In this document: piece after piece, positions 27,336 through 42,549 of the stretch
Layout of the letters: each line of letters begins with the position of its first letter
Position numbering within the stretch: the stretch's first letter is position 1
IMG/VR virus record: IMGVR_UViG_3300027741_000070
Location: 1-59,327 of that record
DNA: 59,327 nucleotides
Strand: one strand, 5' to 3'
From: a virus
Lineage: Duplodnaviria > Caudoviricetes
The notes under the pieces: model-generated
Told to the model about the DNA's origin: nothing
Database searches by the model: none
Seen by the model: only the letters and a program-made list of their open reading frames with translations
Position numbers and translations under genes: made by a program

Positions 27336-27995
27336 CTACGCTACAGCGCCCTCCCCACCTACGGTGGGGTCATCCATATCATGAATCTGCGCGGCATCTT
27401 CGATGCTCACATGAGATTCTTCAACAGAATCAACGGCTTGGCTTGTTATCTCTGATAACAAACTGTCAGCATCACCATCGGTTTGTTCTGGCTGAATGTC
27501 TATAACATTCAATGACTTAAGTTTATCCAGTATCTGGCTCCTGATTTGTTCACTAGAGTGAACAACAGTCTGTTCTCGGCGCTCTGTAAATGCGGCGACC
27601 TCAGTTACTTTGCCAAGTAACTCCAAGGCTCTGATTCGACTATTCGGCGGATTCTCTTCGTTTGTTGCTTCCATTTGTAATCTTTCGATTACTAATGACC
27701 TGATTTGTTGGGGCGAATGCCACTCCCTAACCTCGTTTAAGGTACTTAAACGGTTGATTTCGCTAGATATTCTTGGGTCTCGCTTAAGCATAGCGGCTTG
27801 GTCTCCTACGCGCTTCGGTGAAGCCGAAGTGTTGTAAGACTGTCTGTACGCCTCAGCAGCCGTGAGACCATTTGCTACTAACCTAGCAAAGCTTTTCTGC
27901 TTTGCAGTTAGTTCCCGCGCGGCAGAACCCAGCAGCAGATTCTCTGCTGGCATTTGCTTCAGTGCTTCGGATATATCTTTTCTCGAAAGTTTCAT
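27336..27995 (-). CDS. terS: Terminase small subunit
   Basis: LTAKQKSFARLVANG..AAEAYRQSY HTH and RIRALELLGK motif; upstream of terL. Confidence 0.85.
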   Translation of the reverse strand: MKLSRKDISEALKQMPAENLLLGSAARELTAKQKSFARLVANGLTAAEAYRQSYNTSASPKRVGDQAAMLKRDPRISSEINRLSTLNEVREWHSPQQIRSLVIERLQMEATNEENPPNSRIRALELLGKVTEVAAFTERREQTVVHSSEQIRSQILDKLKSLNVIDIQPEQTDGDADSLLSEITSQAVDSVEESHVSIEDAAQIHDMDDPTVGGEGAVA

Positions 27996-28847: not shown

Positions 28848-28862
28848 ACCGTGGAGACCACC

Positions 28863-31167: not shown

Positions 31168-31419
31168 ATGAACACACTCGAACAACCCTTCGGCTGGGAA
31201 CAGTCGCAATGGGAAGCGCGTTACTGCTACAACCACAACACGCTGAACTATGACGGCAATCAGTTGCGGAATGTGCGAAGCATTATCGCTACTGCAAAAT
31301 CGTATAACGATTATTGCCTTGCCGACCCCGCCCAAGCAAACAAGTTTGCAAAACTTGTCCGTGATATTTCCCTTGAGAATCAACGCATTGCCAACAAACA
31401 GGAGAACAAAAATGTCTGA
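31168..31419 (+). CDS. Early hypothetical protein
   Basis: AGGAGACC RBS and open frame. Confidence 0.7.
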   Translation: MNTLEQPFGWEQSQWEARYCYNHNTLNYDGNQLRNVRSIIATAKSYNDYCLADPAQANKFAKLVRDISLENQRIANKQENKNV

Positions 31420-31687
31420 TTACAATTTCCCCGAATCGTATGATTCAACCGACGCTGGCCTTGCTGCCCGCCAGATTGCGGCGGCTTGGATTGAGGCCGT
31501 GCTTCGGGGTAATGCCCGAGACCTACATACAACATCGGGCTGGACCGATGCTCACCGCAATGCAGTAAAGGTAGAGCTTAAGAATTTGCAGGCTCGACTT
31601 GACCCGCAGGCTGGCGTTCTTAATCCCAACCCATTCGCCCCGCCCGAGGAACAGATTGTCAAGGGCTGGAGCGCGATAGATACCTAG
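31412..31687 (+). CDS. Early hypothetical protein (start MSDYNF)
   Basis: AGGAG RBS before ATG 31412. Confidence 0.7.
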   Translation: MSDYNFPESYDSTDAGLAARQIAAAWIEAVLRGNARDLHTTSGWTDAHRNAVKVELKNLQARLDPQAGVLNPNPFAPPEEQIVKGWSAIDT

Positions 31688-31734
31688 CCGTGGTATAAAA
31701 CCAATTCGCTTACCGTGCGGATTGGTCTCCACCA

Positions 31735-31801
31735 CGGTTTGTCGAAACGGCCTGCCTTGTGTGGGCCGTCTTACGGTAGCACCGTAACTGATGAGACACC
31801 G
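31735..31801 (+). ncRNA. Hammerhead ribozyme, type II
   Basis: Order: TGTC, GAAA, stem III CGGCCTGC/GTGGGCCG, TC, stem I TTACGGT/ACCGTAA, CTGATGA, GACA. Predicted cleavage after GTC at C31770. Confidence 0.9.
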
Positions 31802-31826
31802 CCGGTTCGCTACCGGCTTTTCTTTT
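31801..31826 (+). terminator. Rho-independent terminator-like hairpin directly after the hammerhead
   Basis: GCCGGT-TCGCT-ACCGGC followed by TTTTCTTTT. Confidence 0.7.
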
Positions 31827-31838
31827 AGGAGACCACAT

Positions 31839-32030
31839 ATGCAAGACGTTCACTTGGTTAAGATTTGGGAAGGCGGCGAATATATCAGCGCAGCATTTGT
31901 CAAAGAGTCTGACCGCGACCCAAGCATTCATACTGTTCTTGCAACGCTTTCACAAATTGAATTGGCAAGAAAACTTGCGGCAGAACTTACCGATATTGCA
32001 AACCAACTTGAGGAGACCGCAAATGTCTGA
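31839..32030 (+). CDS. Early hypothetical protein (start MQDVHL)
   Basis: AGGAGACC RBS. Confidence 0.7.
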   Translation: MQDVHLVKIWEGGEYISAAFVKESDRDPSIHTVLATLSQIELARKLAAELTDIANQLEETANV

Positions 32031-32427
32031 CATTCAAACCATTAGCACCATCGCCGCCGAGATGAGCAAGACTGTTGCCGAGGCTTGCGCCGCGATGACC
32101 GCCGCCGCTGAACAGTTTAAGGCGGCTGATACCCAACCCCCACCCGATGTTCTTGAGTCGATTCTGGCGCGTCTGGAAAAGCTGGAGAGCGCAGTTGAGG
32201 CTATTGATATGACTGTAGAGAAGATTGATTACGACGCCCTATCGGAATGCATCAACCTGTCTGACCTCGCGAATGAAATTGACCCTGCCTTGGTAGCAGA
32301 TTGGGTTGACCTTGAGGATGTCGCAAGAATGATTGACGAATCCGCCGTTGCGGAACACGTTCAGATTGACAATGTATTGAGAACGTCTATCGAAAAAATT
32401 GTTCGTGAAGTGTTGAGGGGTGTCTGA
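32023..32427 (+). CDS. Acidic early hypothetical protein
   Basis: GAGGAGACC RBS; C-terminal ID/VD-x-x-L-A helical repeats. Confidence 0.7.
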   Translation: MSDIQTISTIAAEMSKTVAEACAAMTAAAEQFKAADTQPPPDVLESILARLEKLESAVEAIDMTVEKIDYDALSECINLSDLANEIDPALVADWVDLEDVARMIDESAVAEHVQIDNVLRTSIEKIVREVLRGV

Positions 32428-32692
32428 TATGCGGGACAAGATGAAGATAACAATTTATCTGAACTTGTCCGCTTGGGATTGGGGCTTGTCTGTTGACAAG
32501 CCCCATCCCGAATCAGTAGCGCGACAAATCAATCTGGAAATATCTAGGGCAATCAACGAATCAACAAACTGGTTTGATGCCTTTGGCTTGGCAGAGAAAA
32601 CGCTGTTCAAGTTTGAACATTACGGAGCCAATGCGGCTGGCGCTCGCGCCGTGTTGGACAAAATCCTTACATACATTTACAGGGATGAGTGA
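32420..32692 (+). CDS. Early hypothetical protein
   Basis: Overlap-coupled ORF in the operon. Confidence 0.65.
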   Translation: MSDMRDKMKITIYLNLSAWDWGLSVDKPHPESVARQINLEISRAINESTNWFDAFGLAEKTLFKFEHYGANAAGARAVLDKILTYIYRDE

Positions 32693-32892
32693 TGAGAATT
32701 GTTTTCAGACAATCGGGCAATCCCAAACCTCAGTTTGAGATTGTGAAGGTTGATTACTTTGAGCCGCTCCCCGCCCGCATACAGTTCACTGCCGTTGGGT
32801 ACGAGGGAGTGCAGGAGATTCCATACAACAAGAAAAAAGAGTTGATGTGGATGGGCAAGACGTATGACTTTGTTGAAGTATTTGATAACTAA
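32689..32892 (+). CDS. Early hypothetical protein
   Basis: GTGA overlap with the previous ORF. Confidence 0.6.
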   Translation: MMRIVFRQSGNPKPQFEIVKVDYFEPLPARIQFTAVGYEGVQEIPYNKKKELMWMGKTYDFVEVFDN

Positions 32893-32901
32893 GAGGGCGA
32901 T

Positions 32902-33273
32902 ATGCAAGCATACTTTATTGATTCTGCAAACAAAACAATCACCGACGTTGAGTACGACGGTGACTACCGCAACATTTCCAAGATGCTTGGCTGCGATATG
33001 TTCACCGTTGTCAACCTTAACGAAGACGGTGATGCGCTGTTCGTTGATGACGAAGGTTATCTGAAAGACCAAGATAACCAGAATTATTTCTGGTTCGAGG
33101 GATACCCAACGATGCTGGCAGGCAACGGACTGGTACTCGGAACGGATGCAGAAGGAGAATCTATCGAACCATGCCGCCTGATTGATTGGGTGAAAGACCG
33201 CGTTCGCTTTCAAGAAAAGAACACCGCGCCTTTGTTTATCCCCGACCTTAACCCACAAATCTTTTCATTCTGA
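32902..33273 (+). CDS. DUF3846-like protein
   Basis: LFVDDEG...LAGNGLVLG.D.EGE pattern. Confidence 0.7.
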   Translation: MQAYFIDSANKTITDVEYDGDYRNISKMLGCDMFTVVNLNEDGDALFVDDEGYLKDQDNQNYFWFEGYPTMLAGNGLVLGTDAEGESIEPCRLIDWVKDRVRFQEKNTAPLFIPDLNPQIFSF

Positions 33274-33280
33274 GGGAATC

Positions 33281-33634
33281 ATGGAACAACAAATCAAAGA
33301 TGTCGAGACTATGCTTGATGAAGTACTTGAATCAATCAGGTCTCATCACGGCGAAGACTACGCAAAGTTCGTAGTCTTGATGACTAGCGTTGCACAAATG
33401 CAGGAGGCAGTAAGCTCGATTGTTTACGCCGCTCTCGATAAGGAAAACAGCGGGGCCAAGGATAAGTTTGTACAAATGAACTATGGAAAGTTCATGTCTT
33501 TAATTGCCTCCACTTGTTCGAACCTTGCACCCGACTATGGCCTAGAGGATGAGGACGAACTGGAGGGCGCATTGAAATGGGCCGCAAAGATTGTGGATAT
33601 GGCATCAGAGAAAATGGAAACGCCCTTGCAGTAA
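33281..33634 (+). CDS. Helical hypothetical protein (paralog of the next gene)
   Basis: GAGG RBS; similar to 33678-34046. Confidence 0.7.
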   Translation: MEQQIKDVETMLDEVLESIRSHHGEDYAKFVVLMTSVAQMQEAVSSIVYAALDKENSGAKDKFVQMNYGKFMSLIASTCSNLAPDYGLEDEDELEGALKWAAKIVDMASEKMETPLQ

Positions 33635-33639
33635 TCAAC

Positions 33640-33666
33640 GCGGCCTTCGGGCCGCTTAATTTTTTT
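33640..33666 (+). terminator. C(UUCG)G hairpin, terminator-like
   Basis: GCGGCC-TTCG-GGCCGC followed by TTAATTTTTTT. Confidence 0.6.
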
Positions 33667-33677
33667 GGAGACTACAA

Positions 33678-34046
33678 ATGAAAATGCCCAGCGAAGAACA
33701 AATCAAAGAAGTAAAGGAAAGCCTTGACGATATTCTTAATTCAATCGAGGTACACAAGGGCTTGGAATTTGCCATGTTTGTTCATGCAATGGTTTCATTA
33801 AAACAAATGTGCGAAGGTATTCATGTTCTTGGAAAGATATGCGAAAGGCATGAAGATAATTTTTCTGAAGAAGAAAAATTATTGGCGTCAACATTTTTGT
33901 CCATCGCTCCAGACATTTCTGTTGCCGCGTTTTCAAAGTTCGCTATTGCTGCCAAGTTTAACGATGAGCAAGCCAATGAAGTTATTGAATGGGCTGAAAG
34001 AATCGAGAGCCAAATGGATAAGGCGGCGCGAGCGCTGATGAACTGA
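33678..34046 (+). CDS. Helical hypothetical protein (paralog of the previous gene)
   Basis: GGAGAC RBS; similar to 33281-33634. Confidence 0.7.
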   Translation: MKMPSEEQIKEVKESLDDILNSIEVHKGLEFAMFVHAMVSLKQMCEGIHVLGKICERHEDNFSEEEKLLASTFLSIAPDISVAAFSKFAIAAKFNDEQANEVIEWAERIESQMDKAARALMN

Positions 34047-34073
34047 TGATAGTGACCTACAAAGGATACCCAT

Positions 34074-34196
34074 ATGTGCAAGCCAAGAAATTATTTCGTA
34101 GTCCACGCCCACCGCCGAAAGGCTGGGGCGCATGGCAAAACGCGCAAGGCGCAACGCGTAGCAGCTAAACGCGAACTTAAAAAGGAATACAAATGA
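34074..34196 (+). CDS. 40-aa basic peptide (not in ORF track)
   Basis: MCKPRNYFVVHAHRRKAGAHGKTRKAQRVAAKRELKKEYK; AAGGA RBS; ATGA overlap with the next ORF. Confidence 0.6.
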   Translation: MCKPRNYFVVHAHRRKAGAHGKTRKAQRVAAKRELKKEYK

Positions 34197-34396
34197 ACGA
34201 CAATTACAGGCGCAAAGACTTCTTTTCCCCGCGCTCAATGCGCGAGGCATTTGGTCGGGACAATTCTTTTGAGCCAGAAATCCGCTGTTGTTCCGAAATG
34301 TTTGGCGTTAAAAAGAAACGTAGGGCCATTGGCGCACCATTGCTTGCTGCGCTTTGTTTAATTGTTTGGGCGGTAATTACAAAGTTTGGACATTGA
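34193..34396 (+). CDS. Small protein with C-terminal transmembrane helix
   Basis: FSPRSMREAFG motif; hydrophobic IGAPLLAALCLIVWAVI. Confidence 0.65.
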   Translation: MNDNYRRKDFFSPRSMREAFGRDNSFEPEIRCCSEMFGVKKKRRAIGAPLLAALCLIVWAVITKFGH

Positions 34397-34417
34397 TGTT
34401 ATGATGCGCTGCACCAT
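34377..34417 (+). promoter_or_regulatory. Candidate sigma70 promoter with overlapping palindromic operator
   Basis: TTACAA-N17-TATGAT with TG extension; imperfect palindrome ATGATGCGCTGCACCAT at 34401-34417. Confidence 0.45.
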
Positions 34418-34433
34418 TTTTTAGGAGAGCATC

Positions 34434-34580
34434 ATGTTTAATTTCACTTCCGTCATCACCGAATGGTCGAAGATGTACCGCGACCTTTACAACAAAGCTC
34501 ATTCCGAGTTTGTTGAACATTGGACCAAGGCCGAGCAAAAGATTGAAGATTCTTTTAAGATTGTTTGGTGGAATAAGTAA
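34434..34580 (+). CDS. 48-aa helical protein (not in ORF track)
   Basis: TAGGAG RBS; MFNFTSVITEWSKMYRDLYNKAHSEFVEHWTKAEQKIEDSFKIVWWNK; stop abuts the hammerhead. Confidence 0.65.
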   Translation: MFNFTSVITEWSKMYRDLYNKAHSEFVEHWTKAEQKIEDSFKIVWWNK

Positions 34581-34633
34581 GTCCCTCTGAAGAGTCCTCA
34601 TTGGACGAAACCCGCTTCGTGCGGGTCAGGGAC
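34581..34633 (+). ncRNA. Hammerhead ribozyme, type I
   Basis: Stem I GTCCCT/AGGGAC, core CTGAAGA, stem II GTCC/GGAC, GAAA, stem III CCCGC/GCGGG, then TC. Predicted cleavage after C34627. Confidence 0.92.
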
Positions 34634-38456: not shown

Positions 38457-38835
38457 TATTGGTCTCCAAAAGATTTAATTTAATTACTATTAAACAAAAA
38501 GCATCTATATCCATATGTATAAGATGCCCGCGCACATCTAACAGGCAAACGTCGGCGCAGTCAAGTACGAATGTCCACGGCTTGCGGCTTTGACGGTAAG
38601 CAAGTACTGGCACATCATCCTTGGCCTGCTTCTGCGCCTGCTCCCACCAGTCCTTGACAGCCAACCTCTCTTGGCGCTTTACTTCCAACTTGATTCTCCC
38701 CATGTCGATGCAGTCAGCACCACCGTACCGGCTCTGAGTAATGTTGCGTTCAAACTTCCTGCCCAGCTTCTCGCCAAGCAATGCCAAGACTTCCCGCTCA
38801 CCGGTAGCACCCTTGACACGTTGTGACTTTCCCAT
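38443..38835 (-). CDS. Holliday junction resolvase-like PD-(D/E)XK nuclease
   Basis: KGATGERE...GGAD...LEVKRQE...WWEQA...PVLAYRQSRKPW. Confidence 0.8.
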   Translation of the reverse strand: MGKSQRVKGATGEREVLALLGEKLGRKFERNITQSRYGGADCIDMGRIKLEVKRQERLAVKDWWEQAQKQAKDDVPVLAYRQSRKPWTFVLDCADVCLLDVRGHLIHMDIDAFCLIVIKLNLLETNNGKS

Positions 38836-42460: not shown

Positions 42461-42549
42461 GCCAGAGTGGTGAAATCGGTAGACACAGCAGACTTAAAAT
42501 CTGCCGACCATAACAGGTTGTGCCGGTTCGATTCCGGCCTCTGGCACCA
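42461..42549 (+). tRNA. tRNA-Leu (anticodon TAA)
   Basis: Acceptor GCCAGAG/CTCTGGC plus ACCA; D loop GGTAGAC; anticodon arm GCAGA-CTTAAAA-TCTGC; long variable arm; GGTTCGATTCC. Confidence 0.95.

Follow-up and report, generated by a model that had tools for sequence, protein, structure and literature searches.

The stretch of DNA analysed here, which we call the window, is a virus record of 59,327 bp that is near-complete by a CheckV estimate of 96%. Close copies come mainly from freshwater and lake metagenomes, with 4 of the 24 runs listed carrying a soil or sediment label, and the sole RNA run (X24) yielded one assembled contig of 222 nt at a depth of 2.8. On the + strand an operon about 5.8 kb long extends from ~28.8 to 34.6 kb. 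Its 5' genes encode an AAA ATPase (phrog_249) and a phrog_35469 protein, and these are followed by small genes without a family match. Within the operon, a type II hammerhead ribozyme motif and the structures around it make up the whole 151-nt gap between a gene of 91 aa (31412..31687, stop codon TAG at 31685-87) and a gene of 63 aa (31839..32030, ATG at 31839-41), both on the + strand. No second copy of this element was found within the window, apart from its ribosome-binding site (RBS) motif.

The upstream protein of 91 aa has no PHROG match and has homologues at 55-99% identity. Homologous proteins at 55-81% identity occur in other metagenomes. The downstream gene of 63 aa is present in the window, in the related locus L131 and in the X5 contig, and absent from L134, L135, L136 and the X12, X14 and X24 contigs; the junctions in gene content downstream of the element coincide with GGAGACC motifs. 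Since this gene comes and goes among the relatives, the module of ribozyme, hairpin and RBS is kept whichever gene is next.

The ribozyme motif lies at 31740..31798 on the + strand and was delimited from the RF02276 alignment together with the core read from the sequence. Stem II (UGUC 31740-43 / GACA 31795-98) has 4 bp and is open, stem III (31747-55 / 31761-69, loop CUUGU) is capped, and stem-loop I (31771-87) is also capped, with 7 bp (31771-77 / 31781-87) and the loop AGC. The conserved core is complete, comprising the strands GAAA (31744-47) and CUGAUGA (31788-94), U31769 and C31770, and the arrangement of two loop-closed stems and an open stem II in the RF02276 alignment is that of type II. 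The cleavage triplet GUC occupies 31768-70, and alignment with the hammerhead consensus places the predicted self-cleavage site after its C17 (31770..31771). Position 17 of the hammerhead permits both C and A. The triplet is GUA in L131 and L136, and this change from C to A is the only one seen at position 17.

Hammerhead_II (RF02276) is the best match in the region (31740-31805), at 32.9 bits with an E-value of 3.9e-5 locally and 0.0077 when the whole window is compared with all families. The gathering score of 37 is not reached in the window or in four relatives (28.0-32.8 bits), and an Rfam run at gathering thresholds returned tRNA only and not the hammerhead. With E-values of up to 1 the type II model gave matches in 6 of 14 control genomes, none of them above the cut-off. 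No other Rfam family, including aptamers, matched at the element. An initial sequence-only reading had named a type II hammerhead here, and this call holds on a complete core, a sub-gathering RF02276 match and conservation in four related loci. In its core (CUGAUGA / GAAA / GUH), its capped stems I and III and open stem II, and its intergenic position in a phage operon shortly ahead of an RBS, the motif is like the type II hammerheads of the published consensus (RF02276; PMC3088659).

Two hairpins flank the ribozyme. The upstream hairpin, P_up, is 50 nt long (31688..31737, + strand, MFE fold), begins right after the stop codon and ends 2 nt ahead of stem II. Its outer stem (31688-94 / 31731-37) is formed by CCGTGGT and ACCACGG, which are exact complements, and its inner stem (31700-09 / 31717-26) carries the loop UUACCGU and is separated from the outer one by the internal loop AUAAA/CUCC. 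P_up has a predicted free energy of -26.5 kcal/mol with pair probabilities of ~1, and lacks a U-run, so it was rejected as a terminator. The outer stem is a real helix, but it is no arm of a switch. It had been proposed to compete with stem II; however, none of the four core pairs of stem II is engaged by it, and the distal extension of stem II that it would oppose, in which CGG and CCG pair across a UU bulge, loses its register in L131 and was rejected. A 6-nt pairing of the P_up loop UUACCGU with ACGGUAG of stem I was likewise discarded, as ~4 pairs are left in L131, uncompensated. Of 14 nt in the 3' arm of P_up, 13 can pair with the RBS region of a minus-strand gene at ~27806.

The downstream hairpin, P_down, starts 2 nt past stem II. 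It pairs GCCGGU (31801-06) with ACCGGC (31812-17) in a GC-rich stem of 6 bp over the 5-nt loop UCGCU, at -11.2 kcal/mol, and is followed by a U-run at 31818-26 (TTTTCTTTT in DNA, UUUUCUUUU in RNA). The whole unit (31801..31826, + strand) ends 2 nt before the RBS and has the sequence of an intrinsic terminator, namely a GC-rich hairpin with a U-run directly behind it, lying in noncoding sequence and on the strand that is transcribed. Under a strict terminator rule the window has six such sites, of which three are intergenic and co-oriented with genes: P_down, a site in the same operon (33640-55) and one on the other strand (19239-12). The RBS motif GGAGACCA at 31828-35 and the ATG at 31839 follow, as had been noted, directly after P_down. 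No promoter was found between P_down and the RBS, and the downstream genes would therefore depend on read-through, which is compatible with regulation at P_down. The GC-rich stem with its U-run, intergenic and co-oriented with the operon, is like the intrinsic terminators and attenuators of phage operons, whereas its placing 2 nt after a ribozyme and 2 nt before an RBS differs from them; termination at P_down is predicted.

Conservation was assessed on five distinct versions of the element: the window, L134, L135, L136 (the same as L003 and L129) and L131 (the same as L002). These are 88-99% identical, and the same sub-gathering RF02276 match is found in all four of the related loci searched. 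The nested structure of P_up, stems II, III and I and P_down comprises 43 pairs in the five-sequence alignment (A3), and all 215 of 215 cells are paired, compared with 24-49% when the partners are slid. In the five sequences every one of the 20 pairs in stems I, II and III can form. Stem I shows a change of both partners, from A-U to G-C, in two sequences, and stem III shows three one-sided changes with pairing preserved. The 17 pairs of P_up are invariant. In P_down, L135 has a compensatory change from G-C to A-U; by blastn, L135 differs from the window at two positions in 156 nt, and these are the two partners of a single P_down pair, which is good evidence that P_down is a helix under selection. 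The hairpin that the sequence-only reading took for a terminator is well founded as a terminator-like structure, as P_down and its U-run are present, are conserved in all five versions and include this compensatory pair. Covariation as a whole is thin, with two pairs showing changes on both sides and 7 of 500 shuffles matching the observed score. Among these homologues it is the native helices that covary; of the alternative pairings discussed below, the one with the terminator hairpin is uncompensated and the one with the RBS is invariant.

One further contig (X14) has the interior of the element (31750-31799) swapped for 115 other letters, with P_up and P_down retained. Other relatives are few. 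A blastn search of 50,697 phage records gave no match to the element, scans of IMG/VR seeded with both flanking proteins, singly and as alignments, returned two contigs only, and a family-specific DNA pattern found two relatives in IMG/VR, three in JGI metagenomes and none in genomes. A 15-mer from P_up occurs in 107 viral and at least 120 genomic stretches, and blastn over 361 fetched loci found none related beyond the relatives already known. We conclude that the hammerhead and both flanking hairpins are real features, with the caveat of a small sample of closely related sequences.

For comparison, a pattern scan of IMG/VR for type II hammerheads gave at least 120 stretches; 142 distinct loci were kept after dropping duplicates and matches less than 80 nt from the 5' end or less than 90 nt from the 3' end of a locus. 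Among the matches listed, a terminator-like site within 60 nt downstream was found in none of the 142 other loci, against all five family members and 13 of 710 random 60-nt controls, and the fold of the downstream 45 nt was equalled or beaten by 5 of the 142. The 60 nt upstream, at -28.2 kcal/mol, rank lowest when set with the 142 other loci among the matches listed, whose mean is -11.9 kcal/mol. The start codon lies 41 nt after stem II, compared with a median of 26 nt for the same 142 listed matches. The element differs from other type II hammerheads (RF02276) in a score below the gathering threshold, in a very stable P_up and a terminator-like P_down, and in a start codon that is farther off. 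It is for its two flanking hairpins that the locus is unusual, and not for its alternative pairings.

A second hammerhead, of type I, lies on the same strand at 34581..34633, right after the last + strand gene (RF00163 match). Its helices are stem I (34581-86 / 34628-33), stem II (34594-97 / 34603-06) and stem III (34610-15 / 34621-26); its core strands are CUGAAGA (34587-93) and GAAA (34607-10), and cleavage is predicted after C34627. The core is complete, with A at the variable position 7, and the MFE fold is the canonical three-way junction (z -4.04). The RF00163 match scores 22.9 bits (E 0.47) against a gathering score of 34, and an identical copy occupies the same relative place in L134. 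The predicted cleavage sites of the two hammerheads are 2,857 nt apart. Hammerheads have been reported to flank short gene blocks in prophages, and polycistronic constructs of ~2 kb were cleaved (Perreault et al., 2011; PMC3088659). The pair described here is like those prophage arrangements in that the motifs at 31740 and 34581 bracket small genes of unknown function on one strand, and differs from them, as described in that report, in the order of a type II followed by a type I motif, in belonging to an uncultured freshwater phage, and in the terminator-like hairpin carried by the first hammerhead.

The explanation that best fits these features, with a probability of roughly 0.6, is that the intergenic type II hammerhead processes the operon transcript and that the flanking hairpins are independent of the ribozyme. 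Cleavage of the polycistronic transcript at 31770/31771 would leave an upstream RNA that ends in P_up and stem III with a 2',3'-cyclic phosphate, and a downstream RNA whose 5'-OH sits directly at the foot of the stem I hairpin, with P_down and the RBS next in order. Cutting by the second hammerhead at the end of the block would give a unit of ~2.9 kb (31771-34627) with structured ends. P_down and its U-run would be intergenic and work on their own, most likely as an intrinsic terminator of partial effect (an attenuator); on read-through RNA P_down, as a 5' hairpin in front of the RBS, may stabilise or insulate. What the sequences show is the motifs, the helices with their conservation and the rarity of the flanking hairpins, whereas cleavage, termination and any effect on RNA stability are inferred. 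According to a review, it has been suggested but not settled that such ribozymes split polycistronic transcripts into RNAs that differ in stability (PMC6765202).

The predicted product has a counterpart in RiboJ, a synthetic insulator in which a ribozyme and a 23-nt hairpin precede the RBS (PMC6206723). As described for RiboJ, the order is hammerhead, hairpin, RBS, and a leader bearing a hairpin would be left on the mRNA after cleavage. The present element differs in being natural and of type II and in the terminator-like U-run of its hairpin; its function is a prediction.

The sequence-only reading had gone further and joined the ribozyme, the terminator and the RBS into a switch by way of three complementarities. 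All three are exact: besides the outer stem of P_up, CGGTAGC in stem-loop I (31774-80) is the complement of GCTACCG in P_down (31809-15), and TGGTCTCC in P_up (31723-30) is the complement of the RBS motif (31828-35). In 1000 dinucleotide shuffles of 31680-31845, exact complements of at least 7 nt number 0.56 on average, compared with four observed, and 0.4% of shuffles reach four. Two of the four are ordinary local helices, namely the upstream hairpin stem and stem I. One 8-mer complement is observed against 0.13 expected, and 11.6% of shuffles contain one. The pairings of stem I with P_down and of P_up with the RBS are each events at a level of ~1-2%, found by a reader seeking such matches.

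The complementarity between stem I and P_down links the 5' strand and loop of the former to the loop and 3' strand of the latter. Four of its seven pairs arise because both helices contain CGGU/ACCG, and the complementarity is a by-product of this common sequence. Together with ACCG 31781-84 / CGGU 31803-06 it gives a nested alternative hairpin of 11 bp (31774-84 / 31803-15), a strand swap which destroys both stem I and P_down. At -14.8 kcal/mol this hairpin compares with -17.8 kcal/mol for stem I plus P_down in the window, and the gap varies from 3.0 (window) up to 7.0 kcal/mol over the five sequences. The seven pairs have an equilibrium probability of 0.001, and the best fold that enforces them lies 4.8 kcal/mol above the MFE. 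In L135 one of the pairs becomes G.U and in L131 the central pair is broken, and neither change is compensated.

The alternative that survives best is that this pairing, or just the loop-loop interaction at its core (AGC in loop I, GCU in the loop of P_down), acts as a tertiary contact by which stems I and II are aligned and cleavage is accelerated. The contact would be the usual pseudoknot in a displaced form, with P_down replacing a capped stem II. A pseudoknot between loop I and the 3' tail is common in type II hammerheads, and activity depends on it (PMC3088659). Among the matches listed, a complement of at least 4 nt between loop I and tail is present in 72.5% of the 142 loci, compared with 38.7% of controls, an excess that agrees with the published consensus (PMC3088659). 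P_down begins so close to stem II that, from the geometry, its loop could neighbour loop I. G31809 and C31810 are invariant in the five sequences, and a complement of at least 7 nt between stem-loop I and tail occurs in only 1.3% of cross-locus controls in the matching subclass; among the 142 loci (matches listed) the complement reaches 7 nt in one, so that the pairing seen here stands at the extreme.

Against such a contact, the seven pairs require the top of stem I and P_down to open, and both are supported helices. The tail partner lies 11 nt after stem II and inside a hairpin, whereas among the matches listed 73 of 103 complements of at least 4 nt start 0-1 nt after stem II, and for this reason the suggestion that the pairing is simply the activating pseudoknot fits poorly. 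At offset 0 only ACCG/CGGU is available here, which requires stem I to open and is absent in L131; compared with the type II hammerheads of the published consensus (PMC3088659), the element shows no clear pseudoknot at the usual place directly after stem II, a feature that most type II hammerheads have but that is not obligatory. The broken pair in L131 and the weakened one in L135, both uncompensated, also speak against it. A stem-loop I of 17 nt (7 bp and a triloop) is common to 36 of the 142 other loci among the matches listed. This subclass of listed matches has a pseudoknot of at least 6 nt in 1 of 36, compared with 4.3% of controls, and so no excess; it has instead the conserved apex G-U-N-A-N-G-C. 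By size the element belongs to this class, but its positions 9 and 11 are G and A, respectively. On balance a tertiary contact is rather unlikely.

A broader proposal makes the hammerhead and the terminator one composite device, in which the strand-swap hairpin (31774-84 / 31803-15) or the loop-loop core competes with stem I and the terminator during transcription. Each passing polymerase would then leave either a terminated upstream RNA or a read-through RNA that is cut into a hairpin-capped, RiboJ-like mRNA. We hold this device, its two outcomes included, to be an outside chance. If it were true, it would be the first natural wiring of ribozyme folding to intrinsic termination. Literature searches for a natural hammerhead coupled to a terminator turned up synthetic or unrelated work only; the supplementary alignments of PMC3088659 (Figures S4 and S5) may hold similar loci.

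Slightly less probable still is a real conformational switch, in which the 11-bp hairpin excludes stem I and the terminator, so that transcription either terminates or reads through and the ribozyme is set likewise. Its attractions are that in the window only 3.0 kcal/mol separates the alternative hairpin from the more stable combination of stem I and P_down, that of 143 loci (matches listed) this family alone has the terminator-like hairpin, and that the downstream genes require read-through. The alternative hairpin is also the MFE structure for transcripts ending at 31814-16. It is the MFE structure at these ends only, however, and in growing-chain MFE folds all hammerhead helices are present for transcript ends 31798-31808 and 31817-27. 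P_down closes over a loop of 5 nt, and the alternative pairing would have to invade a preformed stem I. Nor is the energy gap held, drifting by several kcal/mol between relatives, and the low equilibrium probability and the cost of enforcing the pairs weigh the same way. The alternative fold destroys stem I and would turn the ribozyme off, not on.

The proposed coupling of cleavage to antitermination finds no support in conservation either: the pairing has no compensatory change and is weakened in L135 and broken in L131, and the compensatory change that is seen favours P_down, the helix it would displace. Cleavage does not, as had been suggested, free the 5' arm of stem I, because in a type II hammerhead this stem is a closed hairpin and remains whole on the 3' product. 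Stem II and the end of the U-run are 28 nt apart, a distance that polymerase covers in much less than a second. The cleavage rates reported for type II are of the order of 1 per minute (over 1.2 per min; PMC3088659), far slower than this sub-second transit, which makes it unlikely that cleavage as such is coupled to the choice between termination and read-through. A pair of mutually exclusive helices, each conserved and each covarying, is not found, as the stem I pairing has no compensatory and one broken pair and the RBS pairing is invariant. Comparable stability or a sensor is not found either: the RBS pairing is 13.6 and the stem I pairing 3.0-7.0 kcal/mol worse than the native fold, no sensor is evident and no aptamer or other further Rfam family matches at the locus. 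A switch linking cutting to read-through and translation is not supported.

It is also very improbable that the hammerhead-like motif is inactive or fortuitous and that the region is a structured intergenic spacer with a terminator. This would account for a score below the Rfam gathering score, for the sub-threshold matches in 6 of 14 control genomes and for the lack of a clear canonical pseudoknot, and it would suit the X14 contig, in which the ribozyme interior is replaced and the flanking hairpins are kept. Every invariant core nucleotide is present, however; the changes in stems I and III preserve pairing, and the only change at the cleavage site is the allowed one from C to A. The size class of stem-loop I is shared with 36 of the 142 other phage hammerheads among the matches listed, and a second complete hammerhead lies 2.8 kb downstream, an arrangement known from prophages (PMC3088659).

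Least probable of all is a working anti-RBS, in which UGGUCUCC in the 3' arm of P_up (31723-30) masks GGAGACCA until cleavage frees it, or acts in trans on the many GGAGACCA sites of the phage. The complement is exact over 8 nt and invariant in the five sequences, CUCC lies within the internal loop of P_up, cleavage would by topology put the two strands on different molecules, and the P_up arm also has its 13/14-nt complementarity to the minus-strand RBS region at ~27806. The design is known from synthetic hammerhead switches (PMC5052635), which are like this idea in that cleavage unmasks the RBS; in those constructs, as described there, the site is paired within the ribozyme itself, whereas in the present element a separate hairpin of -26.5 kcal/mol, ~100 nt upstream, hides the complement, and the pairing is predicted not to form. 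The fold that uses this pairing has -46.6 kcal/mol against -60.2 kcal/mol for the native one, 13.6 worse, with a pair probability of 0.0, and P_up folds ~100 nt before the RBS is transcribed. The predicted unpaired probability over the RBS and start codon (31827-41) is broadly similar before and after cleavage, the largest rise being from 0.04 to 0.34 at A31832.

The eight pairs are fully invariant, so there is no covariation to test. Among the matches listed, complements of at least 8 nt between upstream and downstream sequence occur in 3 of the 142 other loci (2.1%), as often as in cross-locus controls (2.1%), and those of at least 7 nt in 17 of 142, against 11.1% of cross-locus controls. 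GGAGACC occurs 15 times in the window, compared with 3.6 expected, and in 9 of the 15 an ATG follows 8-15 nt on and opens a frame of at least 59 aa; as it recurs before starts in this way, the target of the pairing is the standard RBS motif of the phage. The complementarity is a by-product, in that a common phage RBS motif has one antisense copy inside P_up.

The role of phage and bacterial hammerheads is described as unsettled in a review (PMC6765202), and this locus is a compact case on which to test it, with a ribozyme at each end of a gene block of 2.9 kb and, after the first of the two, a terminator-like hairpin and an RBS in that order. The same order of ribozyme, hairpin and RBS was reached independently by synthetic biologists in RiboJ (PMC6206723). 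If the hairpin attenuates transcription and the ribozyme resets the 5' end of the read-through RNA, this would explain how the two halves of the operon could have differing levels and lifetimes. For now the locus extends a known family by an unusual member and does not amount to a new mechanism.

The window phage uses a recurrent ribosome-binding motif, GGAGACC(A), which occurs 15 times in the window against 3.6 copies expected. In nine of these copies an ATG lies 8-15 nt downstream and opens a reading frame of at least 59 aa. Examples of the 15 copies are found on the plus strand at 28853, 30964, 31156, 31828, 32012 and 38895, and on the minus strand at 38467 and 27806. The motif is longer than a normal Shine-Dalgarno sequence; it could serve as a site for a regulator or mark a recombination junction.

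The gene directly downstream of the type II hammerhead and its flanking hairpin P_down (window 31836-32022, encoding 63 aa) is polymorphic, with one GGAGACC ribosome-binding motif at each boundary. It is present in the window, in the related locus L131 and in contig X5, and is missing from related loci L134, L135 and L136 as well as from contigs X12, X14 and X24. Since this presence or absence is bounded by the two motifs, gain or loss of the gene through recombination between them is suggested.

P_up is the hairpin upstream of the hammerhead. Of the 14 nt in its 3' arm (31717-31730; GCGGAUUGGUCUCC), 13 are complementary to approximately 27793-27806, where a minus-strand gene starting near 27785 has its ribosome-binding region, and the corresponding region at 38467 (minus strand) has 11 nt complementary to the same arm. 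These matches to the 27806 and 38467 regions may be chance added to the shared motif.

The related contig X14 retains both P_up and P_down, while 115 other letters take the place of the 50-nt ribozyme interior (window 31750-31799). For transcripts reaching 31828, the predicted minimum free energy (MFE) structure replaces stem II with a helix enclosing P_down, in which CUGA.GAGA of the core (31788-31796) pairs with UCUUUUAG (31821-31828), a stretch comprising the U-run plus AG from the ribosome-binding motif. The pairs involved are weak (A-U and G.U), and the same pairing would be expected for any purine-rich core beside a U-run.

The operon that holds this hammerhead contains a second terminator-like hairpin (33640-33664, plus strand; GCGGCC UUCG GGCCGC, then UUAAUUUUU), which is intergenic and separates two of its genes. 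The last gene of the plus-strand block is directly followed by a second hammerhead, of type I (34581-34633, plus strand), with a full core of CUGAAGA, GAAA and GUC. It scores 22.9, below the Rfam gathering score of 34, and the canonical junction is its predicted MFE fold. Downstream lies a GC-rich hairpin lacking a U-run (34635-62). An identical copy of the type I hammerhead is found in L134 (3043-3095), which also carries the phage-encoded tRNA-Leu (anticodon UAA, long variable arm) present at window 42461-42549 (plus strand).

For comparison, 142 other phage type II hammerhead loci were taken from the matches listed in an IMG/VR pattern scan. In six of these (e.g. L022, L040, L050, L078, L086) the 3' tail opens with CAUCAG, which is fully complementary to CUGAUG in the catalytic core, and such a tail could possibly fold back and hide the core as a self-inhibiting hairpin. 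A further feature, seen in 36 of the 142 listed loci (e.g. L027, L035, L097), is a stem-loop I of 17 nt whose apex is conserved as G-U-N-A-N-G-C; within this set the subclass shows no pseudoknot to the tail. Because the apex is conserved and the pseudoknot absent, these data suggest that the subclass uses a different, undescribed tertiary contact.
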